Source of the DNA: an uncultured Rikenellaceae bacterium
GTDB lineage: Bacteria > Bacteroidota > Bacteroidia > Bacteroidales > VadinHA17
Reading direction: 5' to 3'
DNA: 64,000 bases
Assembly: GCA_964634565.1 (NCBI GenBank)
Contig: CAZWLP010000004.1
Coordinates: 21,921-85,920 of the forward strand
Shown here piece by piece: positions 10,079 to 54,999 of this stretch. Numbering within the stretch: position 1 is the stretch's first letter; every line of letters starts with the position of its first letter. Made by a program: the position numbers and the translations under genes. Under the pieces are notes generated by a model. The model was not told the origin of the DNA, did no database searches, and saw nothing but the letters and a program-made list of their open reading frames with translations.

Positions 10079-10226
10079 AGCTTTGTACCTTATTAAGGTC
10101 TGCAAAGTAAGGTTTAGCCGTATACCCGACAAGTTTTTTATTTTAACAGAATGTTTTTTCGACAAATGGCAGAAAATCCGGATGCAAATCTTTGCTTAAG
10201 ATTGTTTATAAGAGAATATGAGCTAT

Positions 10227-13516: not shown

Positions 13517-13532
13517 CAGTTATTTTACAATC

Positions 13533-14300: not shown

Positions 14301-14480
14301 GATTATGTAATTTTAGTTTTTGTAGATTCTGGTCCCAAAATTAGATATTCTGACAGTCTCAATTATGTAGAAAATCTGTATAAGTAATAATTACAATATT
14401 TCAGGCATAATTTAGAATTAATCCAAAGAATGTAAGAAAAGGTGATGGATGTTAAAGCATTGGGTGTCGAAGAGAAGATA

Positions 14481-15692: not shown

Positions 15693-15773
15693 GTTATAAT
15701 TATTTTTTAATAAATTTATATGTAGTATCTGTCGGTTTAACAAACTAAAGATTGTGAATTTATTTATCTCTGT

Positions 15774-21600: not shown

Positions 21601-22647
21601 TTGTCAGCTAAAGAGAAAACAAAATTATTTTATAAAGAGGGGCCAAAAAGGATTCTTAAGCATATCTTATTTTGGTTCTCGATATTGACGTTTTTCACCT
21701 TATTCGGATTAGCAATAAATGATAATGGTTTATGGTATTCTTTTAAAATAAATATTATTTTTCTTCCTCAGGATATCTTTCTGGTATATATTATTCTGTT
21801 TCTTGTTATCCCCAGGCTCTATCTTAAGAAAAGGCCCTTTCTTTTTGTTCTGTCACTTATTGCGGTCTTTTCGCTAAATCTGATTTTCAGTTTTTTGGTC
21901 GATGGGTATGTTGCACCGGCTGTAGGAGTTGAGATTGAGGATGTTGTTCTTGCTAAGCGCTTACTCTCAAGCATATTGACTTTTACATTTATTGCCAGTA
22001 TAGCCAGTATCCTTAAACTGATTGATATTAATAACATTATTCTAATGAATAAGGAGATTGCGGAATCAAAGTTTCACAATGCTGAAATAGCCCTGCTCAG
22101 ATCTCAGATAAACCCACACTTTCTGTTTAATGTTTTTAATAATATTGATGAATTAATATATAAAGACAGGGATAAGGCTTCTGATACTCTTGCATTTTTG
22201 TCTGATTCGCTGAGATATGTATTACAGGAGTCAGATAAAGAACTTGTCCCTGTAAAAGAGGAAATTAAGTTTATCAGATCCTATCTCGAGGTTGCTTCGA
22301 TAAGTTTCAATGACCCCGACTTTATTTTGTTTAATGTTAAGGATGAGATGACTGAAGTTTTTGTTGCCCCCATGATTTTTATTCCCTTTATCGAGAACTG
22401 TGTAAAGCATTGTAACAGGAAAGCTCAGTCGCCGGGAATAGAAATAGAAATAGGATATCAGCCACACTATATTAGCCTGTATTGTTGTAACAGGATTAAG
22501 GATGGTAAGCCAGGTGCTGATCCAAATGGAGGATATGGATTAGTAAACGCAAAGAAAAGACTGGATCTGATATATAAGGACAATTATGTTCTTAACATTG
22601 ATAATGATGGCAACAGTTTTAGTATTGATCTTAAAATCTCTTTATAA
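21601..22647 (+). CDS. Sensor histidine kinase, LytS/YehU-type (His_kinase + HATPase_c), multi-TM N-terminus
   Basis: 348-aa ORF with a TTG start as given by the track and no in-frame ATG nearby. H-box is LRSQINPHFLFNVFNNI. ATPase motifs are PMIFIPFIENCVKH and GYGLVNAKKRLDLIY. Confidence 0.8.
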   Translation: MSAKEKTKLFYKEGPKRILKHILFWFSILTFFTLFGLAINDNGLWYSFKINIIFLPQDIFLVYIILFLVIPRLYLKKRPFLFVLSLIAVFSLNLIFSFLVDGYVAPAVGVEIEDVVLAKRLLSSILTFTFIASIASILKLIDINNIILMNKEIAESKFHNAEIALLRSQINPHFLFNVFNNIDELIYKDRDKASDTLAFLSDSLRYVLQESDKELVPVKEEIKFIRSYLEVASISFNDPDFILFNVKDEMTEVFVAPMIFIPFIENCVKHCNRKAQSPGIEIEIGYQPHYISLYCCNRIKDGKPGADPNGGYGLVNAKKRLDLIYKDNYVLNIDNDGNSFSIDLKISL

Positions 22648-23381
22648 TGATTCTGAAAGCTATAGCCATAGATGATGAAATACTTGCTCTTCATAAGATT
22701 GAAAGGTACTGCAAACAGCTTGAAATGGTTTCCCTGATCAGAAAAATTGATAACCCTGCTGATGCTTTATATTATTTAAAGCATCATAAGATCGACCTTA
22801 TTTTTCTGGATATTCATATGGATGGTATGTCGGGAATCGAACTTTTAAATCAGATGGAGAGTAAGCCTCTTGTAATAATGACAACAGCATTTTCTCAATA
22901 CTCATTAAAAGCTTTTGATCTGGAAGTCATAGATTATTTATTAAAACCAATACGTTTTGAAAGGTTTGAGAAAGCAGTAAAGAAGGCTTTTGAGAGGAAA
23001 TTACTTGAAGAAGCATATGAGGGACATTTTAAGGATAGTAATTCTGATGATCGTGATTATATTTTTGTAAAAAGTGGAAGAAAGACGCATAAGGTTTTAA
23101 TAGACGAGATATTGTATATAGAAGGAATGAAGGATTACCTGTCAATTTCCACTTTTACCAGGAAGTATATGGTTTTGAAGGTGTTCGACGATATGTTAAA
23201 AGATCTGCCCGGAGATAAGTTTTTTAGAGTTCACAGATCTTTTATTGTGGCTTTAGACAAGGTTGATATACATGAGGCCAATAAGCTTTTTATTAATAAT
23301 AGAGAGATCCCTGTTGGCGGGACCTACAAAAGGAAATTTGAGGAGGTGTTTTTAAATCATATCAGAAGCAAGGTCAAATAG
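22647..23381 (+). CDS. LytR/AlgR-family response regulator (receiver + LytTR DNA-binding domain)
   Basis: Receiver motif is DLIFLDIHMDGMSGIELL. LytTR motif is FFRVHRSFIVAL. The start overlaps the HK stop (TAATG). Confidence 0.9.
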   Translation: MILKAIAIDDEILALHKIERYCKQLEMVSLIRKIDNPADALYYLKHHKIDLIFLDIHMDGMSGIELLNQMESKPLVIMTTAFSQYSLKAFDLEVIDYLLKPIRFERFEKAVKKAFERKLLEEAYEGHFKDSNSDDRDYIFVKSGRKTHKVLIDEILYIEGMKDYLSISTFTRKYMVLKVFDDMLKDLPGDKFFRVHRSFIVALDKVDIHEANKLFINNREIPVGGTYKRKFEEVFLNHIRSKVK

Positions 23382-23450
23382 GGCTGTCTGTTTCGATTTG
23401 ATTAAATATATTTATTGGTTTGTTCAACCAGGCTCAGCAAACGATTATCT

Positions 23451-25808
23451 ATGATAAATATCCGTCTTTCATTTAGATCTCTGATTAGAGGAAAATTGTA
23501 TTTTTTCCTTAACCTTGCAGGCTTATCAATAGCATTCGCTATTTCATTCTTTATAATATCTTATATTTTAAGAGAATATTCAATAAACCGACATTTTACA
23601 AATTACAATAGAATTGCAAGGGTACTGACAGTAAAGAAAACTTTTGGGTGGACCGAACCGAGTGCTTCATATCCGCTACACCTGGCTCTGAAGAAAAACA
23701 TTCCCGGCATAGAAGCTGCAACTCCGCTAAGAAGATTCAGATCATTTTTAATTGAGAATGATAAGGATGATTTAAGAGTCAGATCTGCATATGCAGCGAG
23801 CAGTGATTTTTTTAAAGTCTTCACCCCCGATATTATATTCGGAGATCCGACTCAATTTTTTGAAGATCCAAACTCAGTTGTAATAACAAGGAGCCTGGCA
23901 GAAAGAATATTTGGAGAACTTCCGGCCCAGGGGGCCAATCTTATTGTTAGCCTGGGATCAAATAGAATAAATATGACGGTAGGTGGACTTATCGAAGACT
24001 TTCCGGAGACTTCATCAATAAGACCGGAACTTATCGGATCTGTCGATTTACTGAAATACGAATTTCCGGAAGGATCTTTCTACGGTGACTATTCAGATGC
24101 CTGGCAGAAGGATCTCTTTAGTGAATTTATTCTTATCAGACCCGATGCTGATTTAGATGATATAGTTTCTGCAATGAGTTTATTTTCGAGTGAAATGCCG
24201 GAAGGTTACGATTATTTATTTACTCTTCAGCCTATGAAAAGGCTTCATCTGTTTTCTACTGACTATGTTAATGACGGTGGAAAGGGTGATATTAAATTTG
24301 TAATACTTTTTGGTGCTGTAGGAATACTTATTCTGATAATTGCTATAAGTAATTACATAATTCTGTCTATCGGGTCTTCAAACAGAAGAATTCCGGAGAT
24401 TTCAATTAGAAAGATATTTGGTGCCAGAACTTCTGCAATCAGGTTTTATGTCTTAATGGAATCTATATCGATATGTTTACTGAGTGTGCCAGCAGCATAC
24501 CTTATTACAATATTTTCATCAGAAGCTGTTGAAGAGTTGTTTAATATTGATATGCAGCTTGTGGGAGAAGAAAAATTTATACTGTTTATTCTGGTAGCGT
24601 TGCTTGTTATATTTACAGGTATATTATCTGGGGCCTATCTGGCAAGTAAACTGGGTAATACGTCTCCCTTAGAAGTGTTGGGAGTAAAAAGTGCGGGTGG
24701 CAGGGGTAGGTCTCTTTATAAAATTCTGATTACAGTGCAGATAATTATATTTGTTTCATTATTGTCATCTGCCTTTATAGTCCTCCGACAACTAAACTAT
24801 TCTAAAAATATTGATCCGGGATTTAACTCGGAGAACCTTATTATTGGTGAGTTTCCTTCAGGTATAATAAGCGATTTCGAAGCTTTCAGGTATGAACTGC
24901 AAAAGAACCCGAATATTATTGATTTAAGTTTCGGAGCAGTACTGCCACCTACTCAGAGCGCAATGGTGTCGGTTATGAGACCACCTGATGGAGGACAGGA
25001 GATAAGCTTTGAAGGTGTATCTGCAGATTTTAATTTTATTAATACATCGGGGATTGAGATTATAGCAGGCAGAGGATTTGATAAAAATCTGGCGAGTGAT
25101 TCCTCAGCCATGCTTATTAATGAAACCCTGGCTCTAAATCTTGGAATTGATGGAAATACATTTGATGCTTTTGAGAGGCTGCCGAATATAATTGGAATAG
25201 TTAAGGATTTCCAGATTCATTCCATCAGGGAAGATATTCCTCCCTTAACCATTCAGATATCGAAGCCCAGATATATAAGTAGTTTTATGGTGAAATACAG
25301 ACCCGGGACCATGAATGAGATTATTGATTTTATTGAAGGTGTCTTTAAGGATATTCAGGCAGAAAAATTATCAATTATAAGTTATGAGGAGGCCGTATCA
25401 AACTTTTATGGAAGGGAAGCACGGCTGGGTACAATTGTAAGTGTTTTTGGCACTATAGCTCTTCTTGTGGCTATGCTGGGAGTTTTTGGTCTTTCACTAT
25501 TTCTGACTAACGAGCTAAGATACGATACAGCTATATACAGGGTCTTTGGTGCTTCTTCAAAAAGGATAGTACTTCTTAACCTCTGGCGCTATCTTTTTTA
25601 TATCGGACTGGGTAATATTATTTCCATCCCGCTGGTAATAATATTTATGTCAAGATGGTTGCAGCAGTTTGCCGAAAGAATAAGCATCGGTCCCTGGGTG
25701 TTTATCAGTACTTTTTTAATTTCAGCACTGGTGTTTCTTGCTACCACATTGTTTAATACTCTCAGGCTGGCCTATATTAATCCTGCACAGAACCTGCGTC
25801 AGGATTAG
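23451..25808 (+). CDS. Double FtsX/MacB-type ABC transporter permease (paralog 1 of 5)
   Basis: The ATG at 23451 gives MINIRLSFRSLIRGKLYFFLNLAGLSIAF, a typical FtsX N-terminus. Topology is TM, large loop, 3 TM, repeated twice. The C-terminus is INPAQNLRQD. Confidence 0.85.
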   Translation: MINIRLSFRSLIRGKLYFFLNLAGLSIAFAISFFIISYILREYSINRHFTNYNRIARVLTVKKTFGWTEPSASYPLHLALKKNIPGIEAATPLRRFRSFLIENDKDDLRVRSAYAASSDFFKVFTPDIIFGDPTQFFEDPNSVVITRSLAERIFGELPAQGANLIVSLGSNRINMTVGGLIEDFPETSSIRPELIGSVDLLKYEFPEGSFYGDYSDAWQKDLFSEFILIRPDADLDDIVSAMSLFSSEMPEGYDYLFTLQPMKRLHLFSTDYVNDGGKGDIKFVILFGAVGILILIIAISNYIILSIGSSNRRIPEISIRKIFGARTSAIRFYVLMESISICLLSVPAAYLITIFSSEAVEELFNIDMQLVGEEKFILFILVALLVIFTGILSGAYLASKLGNTSPLEVLGVKSAGGRGRSLYKILITVQIIIFVSLLSSAFIVLRQLNYSKNIDPGFNSENLIIGEFPSGIISDFEAFRYELQKNPNIIDLSFGAVLPPTQSAMVSVMRPPDGGQEISFEGVSADFNFINTSGIEIIAGRGFDKNLASDSSAMLINETLALNLGIDGNTFDAFERLPNIIGIVKDFQIHSIREDIPPLTIQISKPRYISSFMVKYRPGTMNEIIDFIEGVFKDIQAEKLSIISYEEAVSNFYGREARLGTIVSVFGTIALLVAMLGVFGLSLFLTNELRYDTAIYRVFGASSKRIVLLNLWRYLFYIGLGNIISIPLVIIFMSRWLQQFAERISIGPWVFISTFLISALVFLATTLFNTLRLAYINPAQNLRQD

Positions 25809-25939
25809 GCTTATGCGTGAGATAAAAATAAATTATGAGTTAATCTGTCTTATTAATTTTCTGTCGGAAAATCCTACACTATATTTGGAAGCTTAGGATT
25901 TCTTTCCGTCCTTTATAGGTCTAAGTGATAAAAAAAATC

Positions 25940-27313
25940 ATGAAAAACAAGGCCAGGATACTGATAGTAGATGATAATCGTGAATTGCTTGCAGCACTCA
26001 GACTTTGTCTAACTCCGTATTTTGATTCTATTGAATTACTTCATGATCCAAACCGGCTTTTGAGCCTTCTGAAAGATAAGTCCTTTGATCTTGTTCTTCT
26101 GGATATGAATTTCAGTCCCGGCAAGACCACAGGCAATGAGGGGATCTACTGGCTAAGCAGAATCAGGGAAATAGATCCTTCAACAGGTGTGGTTCTGATT
26201 ACTGCCTATGGTGATATTTCACTGGCTGTCAGGTCTGTGAGGGAGGGAGCTATCGACTTTATACTAAAGAGCTGGGATGAGAGCAAGATCGTTTCGACCG
26301 TCCTGTCGGCAATGAAGATTCAGGAATCGCAGGCACAGATTAAAAAATTGCAGGATAAAGGGCGTCAGCTAAAAAGTGATATAGATGACCAGAACAGGCT
26401 TTATTATGGAAACTCATCGGCCATGAAGGATGTAAAGCATATGATTGAGAAGGTTGCTGCTACCGAGGCTAATGTTATGATCCTGGGAGAGAATGGCACG
26501 GGCAAGGAGCTGGTCGCCAGAGAAATACACAGGCTGTCATCCAGATCAGATGATATTTTCGTAAAGATCGACCTTGGAGCAGTCTCAGAAAGCCTCTTTG
26601 AAAGTGAACTGTTTGGTTATAGAAAAGGTGCATTTACTGATGCAAAAGAGGATAGATCTGGACGACTGGAAGTGGCTTCGGGCGGTACTGTTTTTCTTGA
26701 TGAAATAGGGAACCTGAGTCTTGATATGCAGGCAAAGCTACTTAGTGTACTACAAAACAGGGAAATAGTCAGGTTGGGTGATCATAAAACAGTACCGATA
26801 GATATCCGGATTATATCTGCAACTAACAAGGATCTGTACTCAGCTGTTGATGAAATGATTTTCAGGGAGGATCTGTTCTACAGGTTGAATACCATTATTA
26901 TTAATCTCCCTGCCCTCAGGGAGAGAAAGGAGGATATACTATTTCTCGCAAATAAATTCCTTGTGGAATTAAATAAGATTTATAACAGGAATGTTGTATT
27001 ATCGGATGAGGCGATCAAGTATATTACTAATTACGGGTGGCCTGGTAATGTCAGGGAACTTAAGCATATTATAGAAAAAGGTATTATACTGACCGAGAAT
27101 AAGAAGATAAATGTTTCAGATCTAAGGACAGGATACTCAAGGAAGATGGTACCTGATACGAAATCATTTAAGCTGGATGACCATGAGAAAAGAATTATTG
27201 AGTCTGCTCTTGAAACCTTTAGCTGGAATATAAGCAGAGCTGCAAAAGAACTTGGAATAAACAGATCTACTCTTTATGAAAAAATAACAAGATATGAGAT
27301 CTCAAAGAATTGA
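25940..27313 (+). CDS. Sigma-54-dependent response regulator (NtrC family: receiver + AAA+ + Fis-type HTH)
   Basis: Receiver is ILIVDDNRE...LLDMNF. Walker A is GENGTGKE. ESELFGY and GAFTDA (a GAFTGA variant) are present. HTH is RAAKELGINRSTLYEKI. Confidence 0.9.
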   Translation: MKNKARILIVDDNRELLAALRLCLTPYFDSIELLHDPNRLLSLLKDKSFDLVLLDMNFSPGKTTGNEGIYWLSRIREIDPSTGVVLITAYGDISLAVRSVREGAIDFILKSWDESKIVSTVLSAMKIQESQAQIKKLQDKGRQLKSDIDDQNRLYYGNSSAMKDVKHMIEKVAATEANVMILGENGTGKELVAREIHRLSSRSDDIFVKIDLGAVSESLFESELFGYRKGAFTDAKEDRSGRLEVASGGTVFLDEIGNLSLDMQAKLLSVLQNREIVRLGDHKTVPIDIRIISATNKDLYSAVDEMIFREDLFYRLNTIIINLPALRERKEDILFLANKFLVELNKIYNRNVVLSDEAIKYITNYGWPGNVRELKHIIEKGIILTENKKINVSDLRTGYSRKMVPDTKSFKLDDHEKRIIESALETFSWNISRAAKELGINRSTLYEKITRYEISKN

Positions 27314-28685
27314 CCTGGTTGTGCTTTTGCAGGTACTGTTACTTGCATCCACACCTGTAATATTTTCTATGACTCTGGGTAATGATGTTCTTGTTGTAAC
27401 AAGGATTGGTCTTTGTGTAATCTGGTGTTTTCAGATTATTTTTCTCTATCGTTATCTCAAAAGATCAGAAAACAGGCTCAGGCAGGCAGTTCAGATTATA
27501 AGCAGTGGAGAGGAGTACCAGGAGTTGGGCAAGAGAGGTTTATCGAGCGTTCATGAAGATTTGCTCGACGAGATAAATAAAGCCATTTCTATTTTCAGTA
27601 ATTTAAAAATAGAGAAGGAAGCCAATCTTCTCTTCTTCCAGGAGGTGATGGAGAATGTTCCTGCCGGAGTAATTGTTATGAACTCAAATGAAAACTTCGA
27701 CTTTGTTAATAGGGCTGCGTCTCAGATTTTAGGTCTTGATAATTACCTCTGTCTCTATGATATGGAGAAGGTCAGACCTGGCTTAAGCTATTGGTTAAGA
27801 GAAATTAAGGGTGGTCATAATGTTATAGATATTAACTATTCCAGCAGATCACTCAGGCTATCTGTTTCAGTAAGAGAAATAAAGGTGCGAGGTGACAACT
27901 TAAAAATATTCTCTCTTAAAGATATAAAAAGAGAGGTAGATACAAAAGAGATGGAAACCTGGCATAATATGCTCAGAATATTATCCCATGAGGTTGTTAA
28001 CTCAGTAAGCCCGATTACTTTGTCGGCAAACAGTATGAAAAGAAATCTGGCAGAGCTTAAAAAGATTATAACTGATAATATTAAGTACGAAAGGATTCTG
28101 GCAGATATTGATGACGGACTATCTGCAATAAGTGAAAGAGGAAGAGGGCTGAACGAATTTGTTGAGTCGATGCGTGAAATAACAAAAATTCCTGATCCTG
28201 TTCTTAATACAATTTCGCTGCGTAAACTTGTAAGTGAATCACTCGACATAATGCGAATGAACCTTCAGGATAATCATATAAAACTAGAAGAAGAGCTCGA
28301 AGATATTAGTCTGGATGTTGACAGGAGACTATTTAATCATGTTCTGATAAACCTTGTTAAGAACTGTATTGAATCCTATACAGACCAGGCAACTAAAGTT
28401 ATCAGGATAAGAGGAAGGAAGAATGAGGACAGTGTTATTATCCAGGTTGAAGATAATGGTCCAGGTATTCCCGCAGACCTTCAAAACCAGATATTCTCAC
28501 CCTTTTTTAGTACAAAGACTGATGGCTCAGGACTGGGATTAAGTTTTTCACGCAGGGTGGTGGAAATGCATGATGGTGATATTAGTTTCTGGTCAGAACC
28601 GGGCAGTACAATCTTTACCCTTACCCTGCCTGAAAAACGCAACAGGACTGAAACTACTTATTTAGGATATGACAGAATTGTATGA
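27294..28685 (+). CDS. Sensor histidine kinase (2 TM with minimal loop, PAS, HisKA, HATPase_c); partner of the sigma-54 regulator
   Basis: H-box is LSHEVVNSVSPI. ATPase motifs are DNGPGIP and GSGLGLSFSRRVVEMHDG. It overlaps the RR gene by 20 nt. Confidence 0.85.
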   Translation: MRSQRIDLVVLLQVLLLASTPVIFSMTLGNDVLVVTRIGLCVIWCFQIIFLYRYLKRSENRLRQAVQIISSGEEYQELGKRGLSSVHEDLLDEINKAISIFSNLKIEKEANLLFFQEVMENVPAGVIVMNSNENFDFVNRAASQILGLDNYLCLYDMEKVRPGLSYWLREIKGGHNVIDINYSSRSLRLSVSVREIKVRGDNLKIFSLKDIKREVDTKEMETWHNMLRILSHEVVNSVSPITLSANSMKRNLAELKKIITDNIKYERILADIDDGLSAISERGRGLNEFVESMREITKIPDPVLNTISLRKLVSESLDIMRMNLQDNHIKLEEELEDISLDVDRRLFNHVLINLVKNCIESYTDQATKVIRIRGRKNEDSVIIQVEDNGPGIPADLQNQIFSPFFSTKTDGSGLGLSFSRRVVEMHDGDISFWSEPGSTIFTLTLPEKRNRTETTYLGYDRIV

Positions 28686-28770
28686 TTTTCCAACATATAT
28701 GTTGAATAAGCCGTCATAAAGTATTCTGATATAATTATATAACGTACATAAAATCAGTACATTAAATATA

Positions 28771-28787
28771 TGGCACAAATATAGTTT
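28771..28787 (+). promoter_or_regulatory. Candidate sigma-54 promoter (-24 TGGCAC perfect, -12 noncanonical) upstream of FtsX paralog 2
   Basis: TGGCACaaataTAGTTT lies 61 nt upstream of the ATG at 28837. The same TGGCAY-N7-GTTT spacing is seen at 40154. A perfect palindrome, CAACATATATGTTG, sits upstream at 28691-28704. Confidence 0.35.
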
Positions 28788-28836
28788 ACTATAAATTGAT
28801 AATATTTAGCATTACAAATTTTAGTAAGCAGTTAAC

Positions 28837-31146: not shown

Positions 31147-31236
31147 CATCAATATTATTAGTTTTTAAATTGAGTGCAAATTTCACGAAGACATCTTTGA
31201 TTTACCGATAAGTTTTTATTGTAAAAACAAGAAATT

Positions 31237-33540: not shown

Positions 33541-33689
33541 GTTCCCGGCATATTTGTCTATAGATATAGAAATATATCTACCGATCGAATAAGGAGATAA
33601 TTTAATCTGAACTTTCAACCTATTTTCGATGGTTATCCAACATTTAGAAATACCTGTCGTCTTTTAGAAAACCAAAAAACCTATTATCT

Positions 33690-36035
33690 ATGTTTTCTAA
33701 ATATTTCCGTGATCTGTTGATGGGATTAAAAAGTTCAATAACAGCTTCACTGATAAGCATTATTGGACTGAGTGTCAGTATAGCTGTGTTTATATTTATT
33801 ATGCTCTATGTAAGTACAGAACTAAGAATAAACAGGAGTTTTCCGGAATATAATAATATTTACAGAATTTCCAGTGGTGACGGTACAGGCTTTCAGGGAA
33901 CTCCGGCCCGGCTTGGGGAAATACTTACTGATAATCTCCCTGAAGTTATTTCTTTTACCAGGGTTGATCCCGGTGGTACCAACCATGTTTTGAAGATCGA
34001 TAATGTTCCAATGCGAACAGGTAAACTAATATACGCTGACTCAAGCTTTTTTCGACTTTTTGCATTACCTTTTAAATACGGAGATCCCCTTACCTGCCTT
34101 AGTGATAAATATGATGTAGTTATAACAGAGAGCCTATCCGACAGGCTGTTTGGCAAAGCTTCGCCAGTTGGTAAAGTTGTAAAGCTGGATGGCAAATTCG
34201 ATGTCCGAATAACAGGTGTAATATATGATCCAGGGCAATCGACAAATATTGACGGAGACCTGTTTATCTCTTTTCACTCTATGCCAGAGATAAAAAACTG
34301 GCCTGATCTGTATGACTGTTATACATGCTATAATTACCAGACCTATCTGCTTCTGGCCGGGAATGCAGACCCGGATATAAGTACACAAAAGATTAATGAT
34401 GCCCTGGTATCTTATGGTAAGATGAATTCTATTCCGAGTCTTATTGACCACGAGTATTCTCTTACAGATATGCATGATGTTTACTTCGGACCGGAAGAGA
34501 GACCCGATTTTCGGAAAGGTAATTCACAGCAGTTGAGTATGCTTTCTCTGACAGCTTTGCTAATACTAATTATAGCGATTATAAATTATGTAAACCTGTC
34601 TACAGCGCAGGCAAGCTCAAGGCTCAGGCAGCTGGCTATCAGGAAGGTTATGGGTGCATCCAGAAAAATGCTTATTTCCAGCATTATAGGAGAAGCCATA
34701 ATTATTTCCATGCTGTCTTTACTTGCAGGGCTGCTGATAATGAAACTGGCCAGCCCGCTTTTTGTTAGAATTATGAATATAGATTTTAATATAGCTCTTT
34801 ATAGCGATCCAATTATTTTTCTGATATTTATTTTGGCAGGAGCAATAATAGGATTTCTGGCGGGACTATATCCTGCCCTGTCTGTTACAGGCTTCAGTAC
34901 CGCAAACTCTCTTAGTGCAAATATTAATGATTCTTTATCAGGAGGAAGGGTCAGAAAGGTGCTTACGGCATTACAGGTTTTTGTGTCAATAGTTTTAATA
35001 GGAAGTACAATAATAATTTATAAGCAGCTTTCTTACATTAATAATTACGACCTGGGCTTTGATAAGGAAGTACTTGTTTATTTACCTCTGAATGATGAGA
35101 TTCTTAATCGAAAACAGGCTTTCAGGGAAGAACTGCTTGCGCATAATGGTATTGATAATGTATCATATTCATACTCCAGTTACCGAACGAGTAATGAAAG
35201 GTGGACCTTTGAATTTAATGATAATGAGGCTGCCCTGCATATAGAAAATGTGGATGAATATTATCTTAATACATTGGGGCTTGAACTTTTTAGTGGCAGA
35301 GACTTCAGGGGAAGGCAGGATAGTCTGACAATTATTGTTAACCAGGAGGCATGTAAACAATATTTTGGAGATAATCCTGAAGGAACAATTATTGAAAGCC
35401 TCGGGGGTATGGAAATAATAGGTGTGGTCAGGGATTTCAGGTTTCTGACCTTCGACAGGGAGGTTGAACCCATAGGTCTTAAGTACAGACCAGATAGGGT
35501 AAGCCTTTGCAATATCAGGCTGTCAGGGGGCGAATTTACTCCAGCCCTGGAGCATATGGAAAAAACATGGAACGATTTCTGCCTGAATTATCCCTTTGAA
35601 TGTCATTTTGTTGATAAGCTTTATGAGGACAGATACATTAAATACAGGAGCGCAGGACGACTATTAGTATTGCTTTCGCTTATTACAGTTGTTATTGCAG
35701 GTCTTGGTATATTCGGACTGGCTTCTTATACTGTTTCAAAACGTTCAAAGGAAGTAGGTATAAGGAAGACAAACGGAGCCTCTATACCTGAAATAATAAT
35801 GGTTCTTACAGGCGATATTAACAGGATTGTTCTATGGTGTATTATCCCGGCGAGCCTGCTGATTTACTTTATTATGAGCCGCTGGCTTAACGGCTTTGCC
35901 TATCATATTTCTTTACCTTTTTTTGTTTTCCCTTTGTCTGTATTCTCAGTTTGGAGTATTGCTCTGATTTCAACTATTGGCAAGACAATCGTATTAGCCA
36001 GGATAAATCCTGTTGATGTCCTCCGAAGAGATTAA
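33690..36035 (+). CDS. Double FtsX/MacB-type ABC transporter permease (paralog 4)
   Basis: 781-aa ORF with the same topology. The C-terminus is RINPVDVLRRD. Confidence 0.85.
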   Translation: MFSKYFRDLLMGLKSSITASLISIIGLSVSIAVFIFIMLYVSTELRINRSFPEYNNIYRISSGDGTGFQGTPARLGEILTDNLPEVISFTRVDPGGTNHVLKIDNVPMRTGKLIYADSSFFRLFALPFKYGDPLTCLSDKYDVVITESLSDRLFGKASPVGKVVKLDGKFDVRITGVIYDPGQSTNIDGDLFISFHSMPEIKNWPDLYDCYTCYNYQTYLLLAGNADPDISTQKINDALVSYGKMNSIPSLIDHEYSLTDMHDVYFGPEERPDFRKGNSQQLSMLSLTALLILIIAIINYVNLSTAQASSRLRQLAIRKVMGASRKMLISSIIGEAIIISMLSLLAGLLIMKLASPLFVRIMNIDFNIALYSDPIIFLIFILAGAIIGFLAGLYPALSVTGFSTANSLSANINDSLSGGRVRKVLTALQVFVSIVLIGSTIIIYKQLSYINNYDLGFDKEVLVYLPLNDEILNRKQAFREELLAHNGIDNVSYSYSSYRTSNERWTFEFNDNEAALHIENVDEYYLNTLGLELFSGRDFRGRQDSLTIIVNQEACKQYFGDNPEGTIIESLGGMEIIGVVRDFRFLTFDREVEPIGLKYRPDRVSLCNIRLSGGEFTPALEHMEKTWNDFCLNYPFECHFVDKLYEDRYIKYRSAGRLLVLLSLITVVIAGLGIFGLASYTVSKRSKEVGIRKTNGASIPEIIMVLTGDINRIVLWCIIPASLLIYFIMSRWLNGFAYHISLPFFVFPLSVFSVWSIALISTIGKTIVLARINPVDVLRRD

Positions 36036-36077
36036 AATTAATTCTATTTTTAGTGATTCTATATTTTCTGTTTAATT

Positions 36078-37289
36078 ATGAAAGAACTACTTATTTCTCT
36101 GACGTTTATTATTACTTTTTCCTCATGTGCTGAGAGGAATGTTATTCCTGAAGATATAATTGATGATCTTCCCGGATCATACGAGAAGGTTCCTTTCAGG
36201 TATTACTCGGGTCGCGTATTGTTTGATGTTACTATATCAGACAGTATAAAAGCTAGTCTGCTGTTTGATACAGGTGGAGACAATTTTTACCTGGATAGCC
36301 TGTTCTTCGCAAACAGCTCGCTGAGATTCAAAAATATCGCGACAGCAAGAATAGGTGGTAATGGAGAAGGTCTTCAGCGTGCTGATATTATTATGGATAC
36401 TGCAGAGTTTATATTGGGAAGTAAAAGCTACTCAGACAGCCGTGTTCCAGTAATAAATGTTAAACCTATAACCGGACGCTTTGTTGATGGTATTATAGGA
36501 ACCGAGTTTTTCAGGGACAGGGCAATAGGCTTTAATTTTATTGAAGAGTATGCCGCGATATATGATTCACTAAATTATTCAGACTTCGAGGGATATATAA
36601 AACTGGACTTTGATTTTGTAAATAATAGGATACTTGTTCCGGCCAGGGTATTTGTTAATGAACTGGCAACAATAGATGGTAGTTTTATGATTGATATGGG
36701 AGGCTCAGGAACAGTTTCGATTATCAGGAAAATTGCGGAAGATAACAAGCTGAGTGAGATTATCAAAGATAAGGTTCAGGTAGATATATTAAATGGCGGT
36801 CTGGGTGGCAGAAGTTCCAGGTATGCTTTCGTATGTGATTCCATAGGCTTTGCCGGTTTTACCATTGATGCAGTGCCAATGTATTACTCAGTTGATAATA
36901 CGGGATCTCTTTCAGATCGAAATTATACAGGAATGATCTACAATGATATTCTCGACAGGTTTAATTTAATTATTGATTTTAAAGGTGAAGCTCTTTATCT
37001 GAAACCAAACAGAACTTTTGAAGAGAAATATTATCCCCGAAGACTTGGTTTTAAATGGGTCGACCGAACGGATATTACTGATGGATGGGTAGTAAATAGC
37101 ATATATATTGGTTCCGGGGCAGATATTGCCGGGCTAAAGCAGGGTGATGTTATTCTTAAAATTAACGGCACTTTGGTAGGGGAGGTAAGCCTTGAGAAAA
37201 TGAAAAGTATCGAGAGAACAGAAAATAGTATTAATATTAAAGTTGATAGGTCCGGGCAGATTCTTGAATTTTCCTTTAGACTTCTTTAA
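36078..37289 (+). CDS. Lipoprotein with two retropepsin-like aspartyl-protease lobes and a C-terminal PDZ domain
   Basis: Lipobox is ITFSSC. Lobe 1 has LLFDTGGDNFYL plus VDGIIGTEFF. Lobe 2 has FMIDMGGSGTVS plus YTGMIYNDILDRF. PDZ-like region is GLKQGDVILKINGTLVG. It begins 42 nt after FtsX paralog 4. Confidence 0.5.
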   Translation: MKELLISLTFIITFSSCAERNVIPEDIIDDLPGSYEKVPFRYYSGRVLFDVTISDSIKASLLFDTGGDNFYLDSLFFANSSLRFKNIATARIGGNGEGLQRADIIMDTAEFILGSKSYSDSRVPVINVKPITGRFVDGIIGTEFFRDRAIGFNFIEEYAAIYDSLNYSDFEGYIKLDFDFVNNRILVPARVFVNELATIDGSFMIDMGGSGTVSIIRKIAEDNKLSEIIKDKVQVDILNGGLGGRSSRYAFVCDSIGFAGFTIDAVPMYYSVDNTGSLSDRNYTGMIYNDILDRFNLIIDFKGEALYLKPNRTFEEKYYPRRLGFKWVDRTDITDGWVVNSIYIGSGADIAGLKQGDVILKINGTLVGEVSLEKMKSIERTENSINIKVDRSGQILEFSFRLL

Positions 37290-37340
37290 ATGAAAGCATT
37301 CGTTTTGGAATCAAGTAATACAATCGCTGCTTATCGATTT

Positions 37341-38675
37341 TCAGTTAAACACGATTGTAAAAACAGTCTCAGATCCTGGTTTCGATCTTACTCTTATGCT
37401 ACCATTATGCATTGCGATTATCTGTTTCGTAAGGCTTAGTCCTATACCGGATCCATTTTCGCGGGTCGTATAAAAAGGAATAAATATTTTATCCATGATT
37501 TCAGGACAAATACCCTTCCCTGAATCTCTGACTTCTATAAGCGTTTTACCTCTTTCATTCCTTGCTCCTATAATCTCTATCCTTTTTATTTTTGTGTCGG
37601 CAATTGCGTAAATAGAATTCTGAATAAGATTAATCAGTACCTGGCTGATGAGATCACGATCAATACGACATTTAAGATTTTCCGGTTTGCAATTAACAGA
37701 GAGTGTCACTCCGTCTGAGTATTTTTTGCCTGTAAAAAGAGACTTTACCTCATTAAGTAAATCCTTAATTATTGTATCCTCAAATACAGGTTCCGGGATT
37801 TTTGTTAATTTTTGATATGAATCCACAAATTTCATCAAGCCGTTACTTCTCCTGTCTATAGCATCAAATCCTTCTATAAGCTCATCCATGTCATTTTTAG
37901 AAACAGACTTTGCCATTCTGAGCCTCTTACCAAGTGTGCCTGATAAGGATTTAATAGGAGAAACAGAGTTCATGATCTCATGAGTAAGAACATTTATAAG
38001 TTTCTGCCATACAATTAGTTCTTCATCCTCAATCACTCCATGAATATTCTGAACAGTAATAAGACTCATATTGGCGTTTCCTTTCCTTAATAAGCTTTTT
38101 CTTGTTGCGAGACTTACTAACTCTCCCTTAATTACAGATCGGAATAATTTATTACTACCTGCTTCAAGCTGTCTGCAGAAAGAAGAAAAGCCTGAAGCAT
38201 ACTTATCAACAGAATCAAATTTACCGATTGTATCAATGCCAAATATTTCACGGGCAGTCCGGTTGATTAAGTCTATATTCCCATCTTCATCAAATACAAA
38301 CATTCCGGTACCTGATACATCAGCAAGGGATCTGAAATATTGGTAATCTTCCTCTTTTGATACTTTAACTCCCTGGATAATATCAATAATTTCATTATAA
38401 GTAATATTAAGTTGCTTATATGATTCACTATCATCCTTTTCCACTGCCCTTGAAGAATCCATATTTCTTATTGATTGAAGAAAGCTGTTTAAGCTTTTAT
38501 TTGTTCTGTTAACATAACTTATAAGCAAAATAATCATACTGACCCACAATATGCCTGTTGAGAATTTTGCAACCAGCAGGTAGTCCTGCCCCAGGGCCCA
38601 TAAAAAAAGAATACCTGTGAGGGAAATTAATATTACCAGTATAATGATCCTTGCTGTAAACCTGTTATATTCCAT
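37341..38675 (-). CDS. Sensor histidine kinase (2 TM minimal loop, PAS, HisKA, HATPase_c); paralog of 27294-28685
   Basis: H-box is LTHEIMNSVSPI. ATPase motifs are DSGKGICPE and GSGIGLSLTKQIIAMHNG. It overlaps the RR gene by 11 nt. Confidence 0.85.
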   Translation of the reverse strand: MEYNRFTARIIILVILISLTGILFLWALGQDYLLVAKFSTGILWVSMIILLISYVNRTNKSLNSFLQSIRNMDSSRAVEKDDSESYKQLNITYNEIIDIIQGVKVSKEEDYQYFRSLADVSGTGMFVFDEDGNIDLINRTAREIFGIDTIGKFDSVDKYASGFSSFCRQLEAGSNKLFRSVIKGELVSLATRKSLLRKGNANMSLITVQNIHGVIEDEELIVWQKLINVLTHEIMNSVSPIKSLSGTLGKRLRMAKSVSKNDMDELIEGFDAIDRRSNGLMKFVDSYQKLTKIPEPVFEDTIIKDLLNEVKSLFTGKKYSDGVTLSVNCKPENLKCRIDRDLISQVLINLIQNSIYAIADTKIKRIEIIGARNERGKTLIEVRDSGKGICPEIMDKIFIPFYTTRENGSGIGLSLTKQIIAMHNGSIRVRSKPGSETVFTIVFN

Positions 38676-40035
38676 ATTTCTTTATCTTGTTGTAAAGAGT
38701 TTTCCTGCTAATTCCCAGCTCTTTGGATGCCTTAGAATAATTATATGATGTTGTGGCAAGTGCCTGTTTTATGATCTTTATTTCATGATTTTTCAGATCC
38801 AGCATCAGGGATTCGTTTTCCGGCGAATAAAGTCCACTATCAATTAGCAGATCTTCACTTTCAATATAATTGCTTTCGCTTAATATTACAGCTCTTTCAA
38901 TAAGGTGTTCCAGTTCCCTTATATTACCGGGGAATCTGTATCCTGTGAGTCTTTTTATAGCCGACTTGCTTATAATAATGCCTTCTTTTTTATATTTTTT
39001 TGCAAATTTATTAATAAAATGAGTTGCAAGGATGCTTATATCCTCGGGTCGCTCACGAAGGGGTGGAATAGTAATATTTATAGTATTTATCCTGAAGAAC
39101 AGATCCTCCCTGAACCTGTTTTCATAAATAAGATCTTCAGGGTTTATATTGGTCGCACTTATTAATCTTACGTCAGAATGAATCTGGCTACCTGATCCAA
39201 CCTTATTAAAATAACCTGTTTGTAATACCGTAAGAAGTTTCGATTGCAGGGGATATGGAATATTCGCAATCTCATCCATAAAAAGTGTTCCGCCCGCAGC
39301 AAGTTCGAACCTGCCTGCTTTATCTTCCCGGGCATCAGTAAAGGCACCCTTTTTATGTCCAAACATTTCGCTTTCAAAAAGTGTATCGGCTATTGAACCC
39401 ATGTCAATGGAAACAAATATCTTATCTGATCTTTCGGATAGCATATGTATGTACCTGGCTAAAAGACCCTTTCCTGTTCCGCTTTCTCCCAGGATAAGCA
39501 CAGATGCATCTGTCCGGGCTACCTTTTCAGCCATCTGGAGCGCATTCTTCATCAGGGCTGAGTTATATATGATTTCAGGCATATAATTTTGCCCGCTAAT
39601 TATTTGTTTCTGTTTAGATTTTAGTAATCCAAGTTCCTGTCTTGATTTCCTTAGTTTTATTGCAGAATTTACAGTAGCAAGAAGCTTTTCATCGTTCCAT
39701 GGCTTTTGAATAAAATCCACCGCCCCCTCCTTTAATGATTTTACTGCAAGGTTTATATCACCATAGGCGGTAAGGAAGACAACGACATTTTCCTTGTCTT
39801 TCTTAAGTATCTCACGTAACCAGAATAAACCCTCATTACCCGTATTTATTCCAAGTGAGAAATTCATATCCAGCAGAATCAGATCATAAGCCACTTTATC
39901 AATCTCACCGGGGATAAGGTTTGGGTTTGAGATTGTTTTAATAAATGAATAGTGTTCCGACAGTAAAATCTTAAGTGCTATTAATATTTCACGGTTGTCA
40001 TCTGCTATCAGAATATTAGCATCTTTCTGTCTCAT
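38665..40035 (-). CDS. Sigma-54-dependent response regulator (NtrC family); paralog of 25940-27313
   Basis: The ATG at 40035 gives MRQKDANILIADDNRE. LLDMNF, Walker A GESGTGKG, and GAFTDA are present. HTH is KASKELGISRKTLYNKIKKY. Confidence 0.9.
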   Translation of the reverse strand: MRQKDANILIADDNREILIALKILLSEHYSFIKTISNPNLIPGEIDKVAYDLILLDMNFSLGINTGNEGLFWLREILKKDKENVVVFLTAYGDINLAVKSLKEGAVDFIQKPWNDEKLLATVNSAIKLRKSRQELGLLKSKQKQIISGQNYMPEIIYNSALMKNALQMAEKVARTDASVLILGESGTGKGLLARYIHMLSERSDKIFVSIDMGSIADTLFESEMFGHKKGAFTDAREDKAGRFELAAGGTLFMDEIANIPYPLQSKLLTVLQTGYFNKVGSGSQIHSDVRLISATNINPEDLIYENRFREDLFFRINTINITIPPLRERPEDISILATHFINKFAKKYKKEGIIISKSAIKRLTGYRFPGNIRELEHLIERAVILSESNYIESEDLLIDSGLYSPENESLMLDLKNHEIKIIKQALATTSYNYSKASKELGISRKTLYNKIKKYGI

Positions 40036-40061
40036 TTTAATAATTTGTATGAATATACATA

Positions 40062-40094
40062 TTGTGTAATAATTACACAAGTACTTGTGTAAAA
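40062..40094. promoter_or_regulatory. Candidate operator/UAS: 19-bp palindrome plus an extra half-site in the divergent RR / FtsX intergenic region
   Basis: TTGTGTAAT-a-ATTACACAA occupies 40062-40080, with 9-bp perfect arms. A third TTGTGTAA half-site is at 40085-40092. The palindrome is 27 nt upstream of the RR ATG. Confidence 0.4.
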
Positions 40095-40153
40095 TATATA
40101 CAAAAAAATATAATCTGTAATTATATAGCCTTAATATTCAAGGTAATAGATTC

Positions 40154-40170
40154 TGGCATTAATAATGTTT
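40154..40170 (+). promoter_or_regulatory. Candidate sigma-54 promoter upstream of FtsX paralog 5
   Basis: TGGCATtaataATGTTT lies 68 nt upstream of the ATG at 40222. It has the same architecture as 28771 (TGGCAY-N7-GTTT). Confidence 0.35.
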
Positions 40171-40221
40171 CAGGATCAATAAAATATTTTAAAAAAATTC
40201 TATATTTATATATTATTCGAT

Positions 40222-42627
40222 ATGAGAAACTTAAATCTTATTATAATTTTCAGGAATTTTTCAAAGCAAAAATTCTATAATCTGATTAATATCGCTGGCC
40301 TGGCAATTGGTATGGCAGGAGCTTTAATCTTATTGCTCTATGTCACAAATGAGCTTAGTTACGATAAAGTTCACAAGAATATAGACCGGATATACCGGGT
40401 AAATACTGAAATAGATGCTCATGATATGAAATGGGCATCTTCTCCATTCGTTTTGGGGACTAATCTAAATAATGATCTTTCTGATGATATTATGATTGGC
40501 AGAGTATTTCGGCTGCCACAGACTAATGTTAAATTTCAGAATGAATTATTTCCTGTTGAAGATATATATTGTGCTGATAGTGAGATATTCAAAATATTTA
40601 CTCTGAACATTCTTTCAGGAAGGACTGAAGGACTGCTGACAGAGCCTGATGAAGTTGTAATCAGTAAATCTCTGGCCCGGAAATATTTTGGAAAGGAATA
40701 CCCGGTCGGAAAAAGTCTGGTGCTCGAAAACAATGGTGATGAGTACATCTTCAGAATAGGTGCAATTATAGAAGATCTTCCACAAAACACCTCTTTTCGC
40801 CCTGAAATAATAGTCTCACCTGACTTTGGGCTGGATCAACTTGATAAGGTAATATATACATCCAGCACGGAGCCTTTTGGCAGAGAATATTTCAGAACAT
40901 CATGGTATATGTATTTGTTTTTCGATAATTATATATTATTACCTGATAAATATAATCTCTCATTAATTGAAACACAGCTGGAAGCTTATGCAGATAAAAA
41001 CTTTGATAAAAGCCTGGGACTGAAATTTGCCTTACAGAGATATTCTGATATTTATATGAATTCGTCAGATCTGGCCGGAGAATATGATACGGGTGATAAA
41101 CGCAGTGTGCTGATATATTTTCTGGTTTCGATTCTGCTACTTTGTACGGCATTATTCAATTACATATTGATTTCCAGTTCTTTAATTCAAAAAAGGTACA
41201 GGGAGATAAGCTTAAAAAGGATGATGGGTGCAGGCAGGAATAGTATTATTGCTGATATTTTTTGTGAAACAATGTTATACTCGCTTGTTTCTATGCTTCT
41301 GGGGCTTACCTTAACTGAGCTTGCCTTGCCTTTGATGTCTGAGATTCTATTCGGCAAGGATATAGCAATTAATTATTTACAGAATTATCAATTCACTATT
41401 GTTATCATAGTTATATTTCTGCTTGCCGGGGGCTTGTCAGGATTCTTTCTGACATACAGGGTCTTTAGATATACTCCGCTTGATATCCTTTTTTACAGAT
41501 CATCAGCAAAGGGTGTCAGGTCAGGAAGTACAAAGATAATAAGCACATTGCAGTTGATTGTTTCCATTGTTTTTATGGTATGTGCGATGGGTATCTGGTC
41601 ACAGATCAAATATTTCGGCGAGGCGGATATGGGTTTCTCAATGGATAATCTTATTAAGATTGATTTCAGGGATAATGATGCAAAAGCGAGGTATGAGACT
41701 ATTAAGAACAGGCTGCTTGATAACCCATCAGTATTATCGGTGTCAGGATCGATGTGGGCTCCTCCGACAAAGAGTACTATGAATATGAATCTGAAGAGAT
41801 TTGATGATCCAACAATAAAGGTAAATGTTCAGGGACTTATGGTTGATTATGATTTTGCCGGTACCATGGGATTGCGACTGGTCAGTGGAAGGGATATAAG
41901 ACAAAGTGATGATGTGGAAGAGGGAACGGTCCTGATAAACTCAAAAGCCATTGATGCTCTTGGCATAAGTGGCTCGCCCGTTGGTCAGACCACTTCATTC
42001 GGAACAATAGTAGGAGTTGTTGAAGATTTCCATATACATTCTTTTCATAAGGTAGTACCCCCGATGGTAATTCAATATGTTCCCGTGGGTTCAAGAACTA
42101 TGTTATTGAAAGTAGAACAAGGTTCCGGGCCACAGGTTAATAAATTTATAAGGGAGGTATGGGATGAATTCTCATTTGAAAAAGAGGTAAATGTTACATA
42201 TTTAAAAGATTCACTTGCAGACCTGTATGCTGAAGATCTAAGATTTGGAAGGATAATAACGATATTCAGTTTTCTTACTGCTGTTATAGCTCTGCTTGGC
42301 ATCCTTGGTATGTCAAGATTAACAGCAGAGAGAAAAACCCGGGAGATTGGTATCAGAAAAGCCATGGGTGCTGATTCTACCGGTCTGGTTAATTCCGGAT
42401 TACTAACCTACTTAAAAATGATTCTTTTATCTGCTGGCCTGGCTTATCCTGCAGGTTTAATTCTTCTAAGAAGATGGCTTCAGAACTTTGAGTTTCATCG
42501 CAATATAGATCCAGTTATATTTATTTTTACATTACTGATTTTATTTATTGTTGTTTTTATTACGGTCGTTTCACAAATATTACGCTCAGCCAATATTAAC
42601 CCTGTTGAATCATTAAGGCATGAGTAG
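40222..42627 (+). CDS. Double FtsX/MacB-type ABC transporter permease (paralog 5)
   Basis: 801-aa ORF. N-terminus is MRNLNLIIIFRNFSKQKFYNLINIAGLAIGMA. The C-terminus is NINPVESLRHE. Confidence 0.85.
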   Translation: MRNLNLIIIFRNFSKQKFYNLINIAGLAIGMAGALILLLYVTNELSYDKVHKNIDRIYRVNTEIDAHDMKWASSPFVLGTNLNNDLSDDIMIGRVFRLPQTNVKFQNELFPVEDIYCADSEIFKIFTLNILSGRTEGLLTEPDEVVISKSLARKYFGKEYPVGKSLVLENNGDEYIFRIGAIIEDLPQNTSFRPEIIVSPDFGLDQLDKVIYTSSTEPFGREYFRTSWYMYLFFDNYILLPDKYNLSLIETQLEAYADKNFDKSLGLKFALQRYSDIYMNSSDLAGEYDTGDKRSVLIYFLVSILLLCTALFNYILISSSLIQKRYREISLKRMMGAGRNSIIADIFCETMLYSLVSMLLGLTLTELALPLMSEILFGKDIAINYLQNYQFTIVIIVIFLLAGGLSGFFLTYRVFRYTPLDILFYRSSAKGVRSGSTKIISTLQLIVSIVFMVCAMGIWSQIKYFGEADMGFSMDNLIKIDFRDNDAKARYETIKNRLLDNPSVLSVSGSMWAPPTKSTMNMNLKRFDDPTIKVNVQGLMVDYDFAGTMGLRLVSGRDIRQSDDVEEGTVLINSKAIDALGISGSPVGQTTSFGTIVGVVEDFHIHSFHKVVPPMVIQYVPVGSRTMLLKVEQGSGPQVNKFIREVWDEFSFEKEVNVTYLKDSLADLYAEDLRFGRIITIFSFLTAVIALLGILGMSRLTAERKTREIGIRKAMGADSTGLVNSGLLTYLKMILLSAGLAYPAGLILLRRWLQNFEFHRNIDPVIFIFTLLILFIVVFITVVSQILRSANINPVESLRHE

Positions 42628-54988: not shown

Positions 54989-54999
54989 CCTTTCAATGA

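Follow-up and report, generated by a model that had tools for sequence, protein, structure and literature searches.

A stretch of 64,000 nucleotides of the contig CAZWLP010000004.1 (assembly GCA_964634565.1, positions 21,921 to 85,920 of the forward strand) from an uncultured Rikenellaceae bacterium was analysed. This whole 64-kb stretch is called the window below, and coordinates are those of the window unless another locus is named. Five of its 51 open reading frames (ORFs) of at least 100 aa encode duplicated permeases of the FtsX/MacB type (P1–P5, Table 1), which are grouped with three two-component systems. Comparison with related loci of other Bacteroidota suggests that this supercluster consists of the regulator and permease parts of a MacAB-TolC-like envelope pump, whose ATPase, adaptor and channel would be encoded elsewhere in the genome.

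Architecture of the permeases

Two FtsX domains together with MacB_PCD were found by Pfam in each of the five permeases, and two MacB_PCD stretches are recognized in P2, P3 and P5. According to the hydropathy profiles each protein has eight transmembrane (TM) helices in two 1+3 sets, i.e. TM1, an extracytoplasmic domain of ~240 aa, TM2-4, TM5, a second extracytoplasmic domain of ~215 aa and TM6-8. Type VII ABC (MacB/FtsX) permeases are recognized by FtsX modules of four TM helices, the first two of which enclose a large extracytoplasmic domain. The C-terminal tail NP(V/A)xxLR(Q/R/H)(E/D) is present in all five proteins. The AlphaFold model of P5 (pLDDT 83.9, pTM 0.80) contains eight TM helices in the layout given by hydropathy. 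The original prediction, made from the DNA letters of the window, of five paralogs with a fused, duplicated FtsX topology and a common tail is borne out by Pfam, hydropathy, the P5 model and the alignment; all five ORFs are there at the predicted coordinates, intact and of full length.

The pairwise identity among P1–P5 is 22–27%, except for P2 and P3 (40%); they are old, divergent paralogs. The closest genome found is the Marinilabiliaceae metagenome-assembled genome (MAG) bin.793, which carries a syntenic locus (L012; comparison loci are numbered with the prefix L). L012 has two permeases where the window has three, and the best L012 match of P3 is the P2 ortholog. P3 may be a lineage-specific duplicate of P2 or may have been lost from L012.

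Table 1. Features of the permease supercluster. Identities and pN/pS (ratio of nonsynonymous to synonymous differences per site) refer to orthologs in the locus named; Pfam, domains found by Pfam; HK, histidine kinase; RR, response regulator.
Feature	Coordinates	Strand	Details
P1, duplicated FtsX/MacB-type permease	23451..25808	+	785 aa, 8 TM; Pfam FtsX x2 and MacB_PCD; coupling-helix motifs at residues 316 and 692; tail NPAQNLRQD; L012 54.5% identical, pN/pS 0.40
P2, duplicated permease	28837..31146	+	769 aa; Pfam MacB_PCD x2 and FtsX x2; L012 87%, L014 65% identical; pN/pS 0.18
P3, duplicated permease	31237..33540	+	767 aa; Pfam; no one-to-one L012 counterpart
P4, duplicated permease	33690..36035	+	781 aa; Pfam; L012 68.5% identical, pN/pS 0.26
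P5, duplicated permease	40222..42627	+	801 aa; Pfam; divergent from RR2
LytS-type HK, module 1	21601..22647	+	Pfam His_kinase PF06580 (E 1e-23); four N-terminal hydrophobic segments
LytTR RR, module 1	22647..23381	+	Pfam Response_reg and LytTR; ortholog in L012 adjoins the P1 ortholog
RR1, sigma-54-dependent RR	25925..27313	+	probable true start near 25940; Pfam Response_reg, Sigma54_activat, AAA_lid_14, HTH_8
HK1, PAS HK	27294..28685	+	Pfam PAS_8 and HATPase_c; TM 8-26 and 28-46 only, no periplasmic domain
HK2, PAS HK	37341..38675	-	Pfam PAS_8 and HATPase_c; two-TM hairpin, TM 10-28 and 34-52
RR2, sigma-54-dependent RR	38665..40080	-	Pfam; probable true start near 40035
Asp-protease-like/PDZ putative lipoprotein	36078..37289	+	weak Pfam matches to PDZ and Asp_protease_2; lipobox-like N-terminus
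Candidate sigma-54 promoter TGGCAC-N5-TAGT	28771..28785	+	pattern match, 66 nt before P2
Candidate sigma-54 promoter TGGCAT-N5-ATGT	40154..40168	+	pattern match, 68 nt before P5

Absence of ATPase, adaptor and channel genes

The second claim of the original prediction was that the 64 kb contain no Walker-A ATPase, HlyD-like or TolC-like gene, and three scans agree with it. Pfam recognizes no ABC ATPase, HlyD or TolC-family protein (OEP) among the ORFs of at least 100 aa; the six-frame scan of the window for Walker-A and LSGGQ motifs revealed no ABC ATPase; and phmmer searches with genuine HlyD, OEP and two ATPase (ATP1, ATP2) sequences gave no match among stop-to-stop ORFs of at least 60 aa. 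The window was not matched exactly by any of the genome contigs searched; its sequence belongs to a metagenome series (MUDA16-1, JGI 3300029449/3300029797 and SRR51125xx). Contigs from the same metagenome extend the locus by ~13 kb on its left side and by ~4 kb on its right. Over these distances no ATPase, adaptor or channel was found, so an ATPase operon just outside the window, which would make the locus an ordinary MacAB system, is absent there.

The left flank was recovered by means of a complete M14 peptidase that neighbours a sixth paralog. This sixth, solo duplicated FtsX permease (793 aa) is located ~8–10.5 kb beyond the left edge of the window (L245 2692-5073; L007 19848-21065), between a DUF5128 protein and the M14 carboxypeptidase, and neither a two-component system nor an ATPase adjoins it. 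It has no close ortholog among the 523 collected permeases (the best is 32% identical), so synteny is of no use for guessing the genes upstream of it. A scan of metagenome contigs with the sixth paralog gave no match, the source samples being apparently outside that collection.

Retained coupling elements and selection

The permeases of the window have kept the elements by which relatives contact their ATPase. In MacB the ATPase is contacted by a coupling helix that connects TM2 with TM3 and by a minor helix at the C-terminus (PMC5985334), and in YbbP two coupling helices bind a separate ATPase dimer (PMC12646458). Both halves of P1–P5 carry the corresponding motif E-x-G-I-R-K-x-x-G-A or a near-match, and the tail conforms to NPxxxLRxE. 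P1 and P5 match the strict motif in both halves; P2, P3 and P4 each match it in one half, and in the alignment their other half is a near-match by eye. In the P5 model the cytoplasmic coupling helices comprise residues 326–334 (TM2/3) and 706–714 (TM6/7), and the C-terminal helix residues 794–800. The frequencies of first-half motif, second-half motif and tail are 0.79, 1.00 and 1.00 in orphan permeases (n=19) against 0.74, 0.97 and 0.93 in permeases with an ATPase in cis (n=403). By these motifs, orphan permeases retain the predicted ATPase-contacting elements as often as permeases with an ATPase in cis.

The pN/pS values of 0.18–0.40 against the L012 orthologs mean that the permease genes are under purifying selection. 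When the P5 model was compared with known structures by Foldseek, YbbP was the best full-length match (9ge7/9ge6, E 1e-17), followed by MacB, LolCDE and BceAB (probability 1.00), all of which are ATPase-driven. By sequence the nearest solved protein is MacB (88 bits, vs 32 bits for YbbP). The periplasmic domain of the permeases is also matched by the PDB entry 3IS6, a crystal structure of "a domain of a putative permease" from Porphyromonas gingivalis that dates from a structural genomics project of 2009 (hmmsearch E 2.7e-15; Foldseek TM-score, normalised to the target, 0.74–0.80). Periplasmic domains of this family type are thus already represented by one experimental structure.

Regulators and promoters

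The three regulatory modules were correctly foreseen as well. P1 follows a LytS-type HK and a LytTR RR, P2–P4 follow the sigma-54-dependent RR1 and the PAS kinase HK1, and an inverted pair (HK2 and RR2) is divergent from P5. The identity between RR1 and RR2 is 48% and that between HK1 and HK2 is 29%. The domains of both sigma-54-dependent RRs are clear (receiver, sigma-54 AAA+, HTH), with the loop of GAFTGA type reading GAFTDA; rpoN itself was not seen. RR1 is 47–49% and RR2 51% identical to the RRs of the complete loci L147 and L148 (see below), while the kinases of the window are 30–34% identical to those of complete loci; the regulators of the window thus resemble those of the complete loci about as much as they resemble each other.

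HK1 and HK2 possess nothing outside the cytoplasm except an N-terminal hairpin of two TM helices with a loop of ~1–5 residues, and the same architecture was found in 109 of 120 related kinases. By analogy, the PAS kinases of the window resemble those that sense via a partner transporter, as in BceAB-S, and may work in a similar way.

Across the family, the element TGGCA[CT] is found in 93 of the 106 intergenic regions between the RR gene and the permease array, compared with 8 of 106 shuffled regions. It lies most often 40–49 nt before the first gene, within the consensus TGGCAY-N5-TTGrC. Candidate sites of this kind precede P2 and P5, and the site in L012 orthologous to the P5 candidate reads TGGCATTAATTATGC. 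Sigma-54 promoters have been described as enriched upstream of COG0577/FtsX permeases in Bacteroidia in a computational study published in 2025 (PMC12316311). The scans of the region 21.2–41 kb for E. coli-type sigma-70 promoters (94 sites vs 74.5 ± 9.4 expected) and for intrinsic terminators (14 terminator-like sites vs 11.7 expected) were uninformative.

A protease/PDZ lipoprotein had been counted as a member of module 2. A gene with a lipobox does follow P4, but its membership is doubtful: the 215 comparison loci counted contain no homolog, and the gene is missing from the otherwise syntenic L012. It was rejected as a conserved component of the system.

Complete loci in related bacteria

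Two kinds of comparison loci were collected. The permease-seeded set comprises 55 loci; the ATPase-seeded sets were obtained with a conserved MacB/LolD-type ATPase of 225 aa (225–228 aa), which was matched more than 580 times in each of two scans; the analysis covers the 80 best matches from either scan. Most permease-seeded loci are without an ATPase, while in L015, L021 and L025 a MacB/LolD-type ATPase of 225–228 aa heads the array.

The ATPase-seeded loci show two layouts. In Flavobacteriia/Chitinophagia a PAS-HK/sigma-54 RR pair is divergent from the genes of HlyD, ATPase 1, one to four permeases, ATPase 2 and OEP. HlyD was found in 78 of these 80 loci, the sigma-54 RR in 73 and duplicated permeases in 75 (233 in total); OEP was seen in 14, as the arrays usually extend past the 10-kb flank. 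In Bacteroidales/Marinilabiliales the PAS-HK/RR pair is divergent from OEP, HlyD, ATPase and one to five permeases, and the corresponding numbers for 80 loci are 70 (HlyD), 63 (OEP), 66 (sigma-54 RR) and 63 (loci with duplicated permeases, 155 in total). HlyD is therefore encoded in 148 of the 160 ATPase-seeded loci. Pfam analysis of one locus, L102, gave HlyD_3, two ABC_tran and OEP. Several of the best ATPase matches come from the order of the source organism, the top one being from a Marinilabiliaceae MAG (86%); further genera among them are ones which we take to be Marinilabiliales.

In these loci up to four or five permease genes follow a single ATPase gene, which makes a 1:N ratio normal for the family. 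Most loci of Bacteroidales/Marinilabiliales have only one ATPase. In complete Flavobacteriia loci (L067, L072, L081, L086, L102, L113 and others) two different ATPase genes, 51% identical to each other, bracket the permeases (in L102 they occupy positions 10007-10684 and 15648-16325). This arrangement suggests that the ATPase is a heterodimer, as a counterpart of the pseudo-heterodimeric single-chain permease.

Since the complete form of the system carries an ATPase, an adaptor and a TolC-family channel, modules 2 and 3 correspond to the regulator and permease parts of a common system. Judged by homology, the window contains a stripped MacAB-TolC-like system and not one that lacks these parts in principle.

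A number of loci are intermediate between the two states. In L147 a permease-HK-RR block faces an OEP-HlyD-ATPase-permease operon, ~8 kb from a 65% identical ortholog of P2 on the same contig. In L160, L169 and L175 a complete set is accompanied by additional RR/HK pairs and permeases. Among non-orthologous proteins P5 is best matched (42% identity) by an L175 permease which, like P5, diverges from an RR, and which adjoins a complete OEP-HlyD-ATPase set. The operon of L235 (8323-11979) comprises OEP, HlyD and ATPase with no permease downstream; the only duplicated permease of this locus is found across the divergent two-component system, a mirror image of the permease-only layout of the window. 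Stripped arrays of a two-component system and permeases were also found in L012, L023, L048 and L050, the last three being from Roseivirga.

Comparison with known systems

The window permeases share with MacAB-TolC the FtsX module and MacB_PCD periplasmic domain, the coupling helix between TM2 and TM3 and the C-terminal minor helix, and their complete relatives encode an HlyD adaptor, a MacB/LolD-type ATPase and a TolC-family channel. In contrast to MacB, which is a homodimer, the window permease is a single-chain fusion of two units with 8 TM helices. The ATPase of the family is a separate protein, several divergent permeases go with one ATPase, control is exerted by sigma-54 two-component systems, and neither ATPase nor adaptor nor channel is encoded in cis in the window.

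The nearest NCBIfam model is ADOP (TIGR03434, "duplicated permease"). P1–P5 score 141, 247, 230, 212 and 200 bits, respectively, against a cut-off of 622.3, so they form a sister group of ADOP and are not its members. The similarity comprises length, the duplicated FtsX architecture, alignment over the full length of the model and occurrence as a paralogous array without an adjacent ATPase (five copies and the sixth nearby). According to the TIGRFAMs description, ADOP proteins form large paralogous families usually not located beside an ATPase. Unlike ADOP, the wider family of the window permeases has an identifiable dedicated ATPase, adaptor and channel.

The E. coli YbbAP-TesA system also has a single-chain, pseudo-dimeric Type VII permease with two periplasmic domains and two coupling helices for a separate ATPase dimer. 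YbbP, however, has 10 TM helices including two linker helices and differs considerably from the window permeases (12% identity, TM-score 0.41); ybbA is co-located with ybbP, and the partner of YbbAP is a hydrolase and not an adaptor with a channel. Only P4 matches the YbbP model NF041854 at all (23 bits, cut-off at least 999). The next nearest model after ADOP, DarB (NF038008, cut-off 700), gives 64–142 bits; its 777-position permease profile aligns almost over the full length with P4 (103 bits) and P5 (142 bits). Unlike the window, DarBCD, the darobactin exporter, has one permease per system, is encoded in a biosynthetic cluster of a ribosomally synthesised and post-translationally modified peptide and lacks a sigma-54 two-component system. 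BceAB-BceRS, a module for sensing and detoxifying antimicrobial peptides, likewise combines a Type VII permease of similar structure with a kinase devoid of an extracellular sensor, with one two-component system per transporter. It differs in that BceB has 10 TM helices and one extracellular domain, BceA is always in cis, the regulator is of the OmpR type and the hosts are Gram-positive (Firmicutes).

The original prediction considered Bacteroidota FtsX arrays experimentally uncharacterised. We found no experimental work on their function, only mentions at the annotation level and one computational paper on the sigma-54 regulon; this is provisional, since most subscription journals were outside the literature searched. 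The family itself has been named and noted in Bacteroidota before: the name ADOP has been applied to Bacteroidota genes by RAST and in papers, ADOP-like genes are present in 28 and 33 copies in two Dyadobacter genomes (PMC11573002), and a genomic island of Psychroflexus torquis carries a highly translated cluster of 10 ADOP-like paralogs (PMC3914696). The kind of system is thus known at the annotation level (Type VII ABC, MacAB-TolC-like, with ADOP-like permeases), and both the orphan state and the link to sigma-54, the latter published in 2025, have been remarked on. In the same literature, and equally provisionally, we found no description of an ATPase/adaptor/channel chassis serving many single-chain permeases, of its control by one or more sigma-54 two-component systems, or of the split into permease-only and permease-less loci.

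Proposed mode of action

Two options had been left open for the permeases: either one remote ATPase serves many of them, or they act in a different way, e.g. as envelope sensors or extractors feeding the adjacent kinases. The comparative loci favour the remote ATPase; the sensor idea is less favoured and finds some support in the kinases. Because hundreds of related Bacteroidota clusters place the ATPase, adaptor and channel next to such permeases, P1–P5 most likely borrow these parts from elsewhere in the genome. We consider it probable (about 60%) that the locus represents three separately regulated satellite modules of a Bacteroidota MacAB-TolC-like Type VII ABC envelope pump, with the ATPase and probably also the adaptor and channel shared in trans. 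The grounds for this reading are gene content, the architecture found throughout the family, the retained coupling elements and purifying selection.

The permease of this pump is a single-chain fusion of two MacB/FtsX units, and a complete operon has a sigma-54-type promoter and encodes a TolC-family channel, HlyD, one (sometimes two) 225-aa ATPase(s) and one to five permeases. For the assembly in trans, the substrates and the signals of the kinases we infer the following scheme. Each two-component system would switch on its own permease(s). With its two conserved coupling helices each permease would bind an ATPase dimer whose gene lies at another place in the genome, and it would probably also engage the shared adaptor and channel. 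ATP-driven mechanotransmission would then expel a compound from the periplasm or outer leaflet, specific to the divergent periplasmic domains of the given permease; as these domains differ from module to module, so should the specificity.

Several observations weigh against shared parts in trans or their sigma-54 control. The source organism is represented by metagenome contigs only, and its ATPase, adaptor and channel were not found; the four close HlyD homologs that were looked up (P0128, P0124, P0129, P0146) all come from other samples. L012 (bin.793) is not among the best 80 ATPase matches or the 8 OEP matches, which could reflect either a real absence or the incompleteness of the MAG. No MacB-type ATPase is encoded in 20 of the 21 permease-seeded loci with full 10-kb flanks; with orphan arrays in the majority, one ATPase would have to be shared by a very large number of permeases. 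Finally, both promoter candidates of the window have a perfect -24 element but a weak -12 element (GT instead of GC), for which reason they are treated as candidates only.

A more far-reaching version of the shared-pump reading is a "cartridge" pump, in which one chassis of ATPase, adaptor and channel would accept interchangeable single-chain permeases, each induced by its own sigma-54 two-component system, with the sensor-less kinase monitoring how active its permease partner is, a flux sensing of the Bce kind in a Gram-negative host. We put this forward as a tentative possibility and would not expect all of it to hold. If it did, Bacteroidota would possess a modular, expandable recognition repertoire for envelope-active compounds, and chassis and cartridges would be free to sit apart in the genome and to move on flexible islands.

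Alternatively, the permeases might be ATP-driven extractors, powered by an ATPase in trans and handing their substrates to a periplasmic or lipoprotein partner without any trans-envelope pump, like YbbAP-TesA or LolCDE. This is rather unlikely in our opinion. The best full-length structural match, YbbP, does present substrates to a hydrolase, no adaptor or channel is encoded in cis, and possible partners are the Asp-protease/PDZ lipoprotein directly after P4 or the peptidases in which the neighbourhood is rich (M16, two S41, M61, M14, PD40). However, the protease/PDZ gene lacks homologs in the comparison loci and in L012, the sequences are nearer to MacB than to YbbP, and complete loci almost always contain HlyD, plus OEP where the flank reaches.

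Improbable to a greater degree is the notion of ATPase-independent sensors, according to which the permeases would be ligand-binding co-sensors that signal within the membrane to the sensor-less kinases and transport nothing. In BceAB-BceS the transporter acts as a sensor. The structural relatedness of this system to P5 (Foldseek matches 8s5g and 8g3a), the hairpin architecture of HK1, HK2 and most of their relatives, the pairing of every module with its own two-component system and the absence of an ATPase from the window and its flanks speak for such a mode. But sensing by BceAB-S still requires the ATPase, and the coupling and C-terminal helices are equally conserved in orphan permeases and in those with an ATPase in cis. 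The same type of kinase is found in complete loci beside ATPase, adaptor and channel, so the kinase architecture is no argument for an ATPase-free mode. Three permeases (P2–P4) behind one two-component system also exceed what a sensor would need. That the modules are merely decaying remnants of complete loci, as the missing shared parts and the location in a segment absent from a close relative (see below) might suggest, is very improbable, since the five ORFs are intact and of full length and keep their functional motifs, pN/pS against L012 is low, L012 keeps the same stripped layout, and the ADOP paralog cluster of Psychroflexus was reported to be highly translated (PMC3914696).

Few paralogous families of membrane proteins in Bacteroidota are as large as the duplicated FtsX permeases. 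As complete loci under sigma-54 control, with many permeases per ATPase, exist along with permease-only and permease-less versions, the orphan-permease problem becomes directly testable. It can now be asked which permeases are served by which ATPase, adaptor and channel, and whether one chassis exchanges its permeases. Should swapping occur, it would be a new organisational principle for tripartite pumps and would bear on the resistance of gut and environmental Bacteroidota to peptides, bacteriocins and bile-like compounds.

Genomic neighbourhood

In a close relative (L248, proteins 85–90% identical) the genes of the M16 peptidase (window 5042-7849) and of the Exo_endo_phos protein (window 53038-53802) are immediate neighbours, and a 44.6-kb segment (window 8216-52825) with the whole permease supercluster is missing. 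L248 also lacks the block of LytTR/LytS, beta-lactamase, HK and S41 genes before adh_short (window 54248-60958). The absence of the segment from L248 places the cluster in the flexible genome. No integrase or transposase domains were seen, and the GC content does not shift.

The neighbourhood contains secreted or envelope peptidases of the families M16, S41 (two), M61 and M14 and PD40/tricorn-like proteins (1151 and 319 aa), as well as a serine beta-lactamase-fold protein, two TonB-dependent receptors and a SusC/SusD pair right after P5 (43067-47773). The peptidase- and uptake-rich regions are 5042-20322, 49071-50960 and 59249-60958 of the window and 16902-19670 of L007.

The density of LytS/LytTR genes in the window is high: three complete pairs, one lone LytS-type kinase and one stand-alone LytTR-domain protein of 134 aa were found (21601-23381, 48144-48548, 51123-52825, 54248-56064 and 58031-59089). 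LytS/LytTR pairs also adjoin the sigma-54 pair in several unrelated loci, namely L048, L090, L100, L152, L154 and L210.

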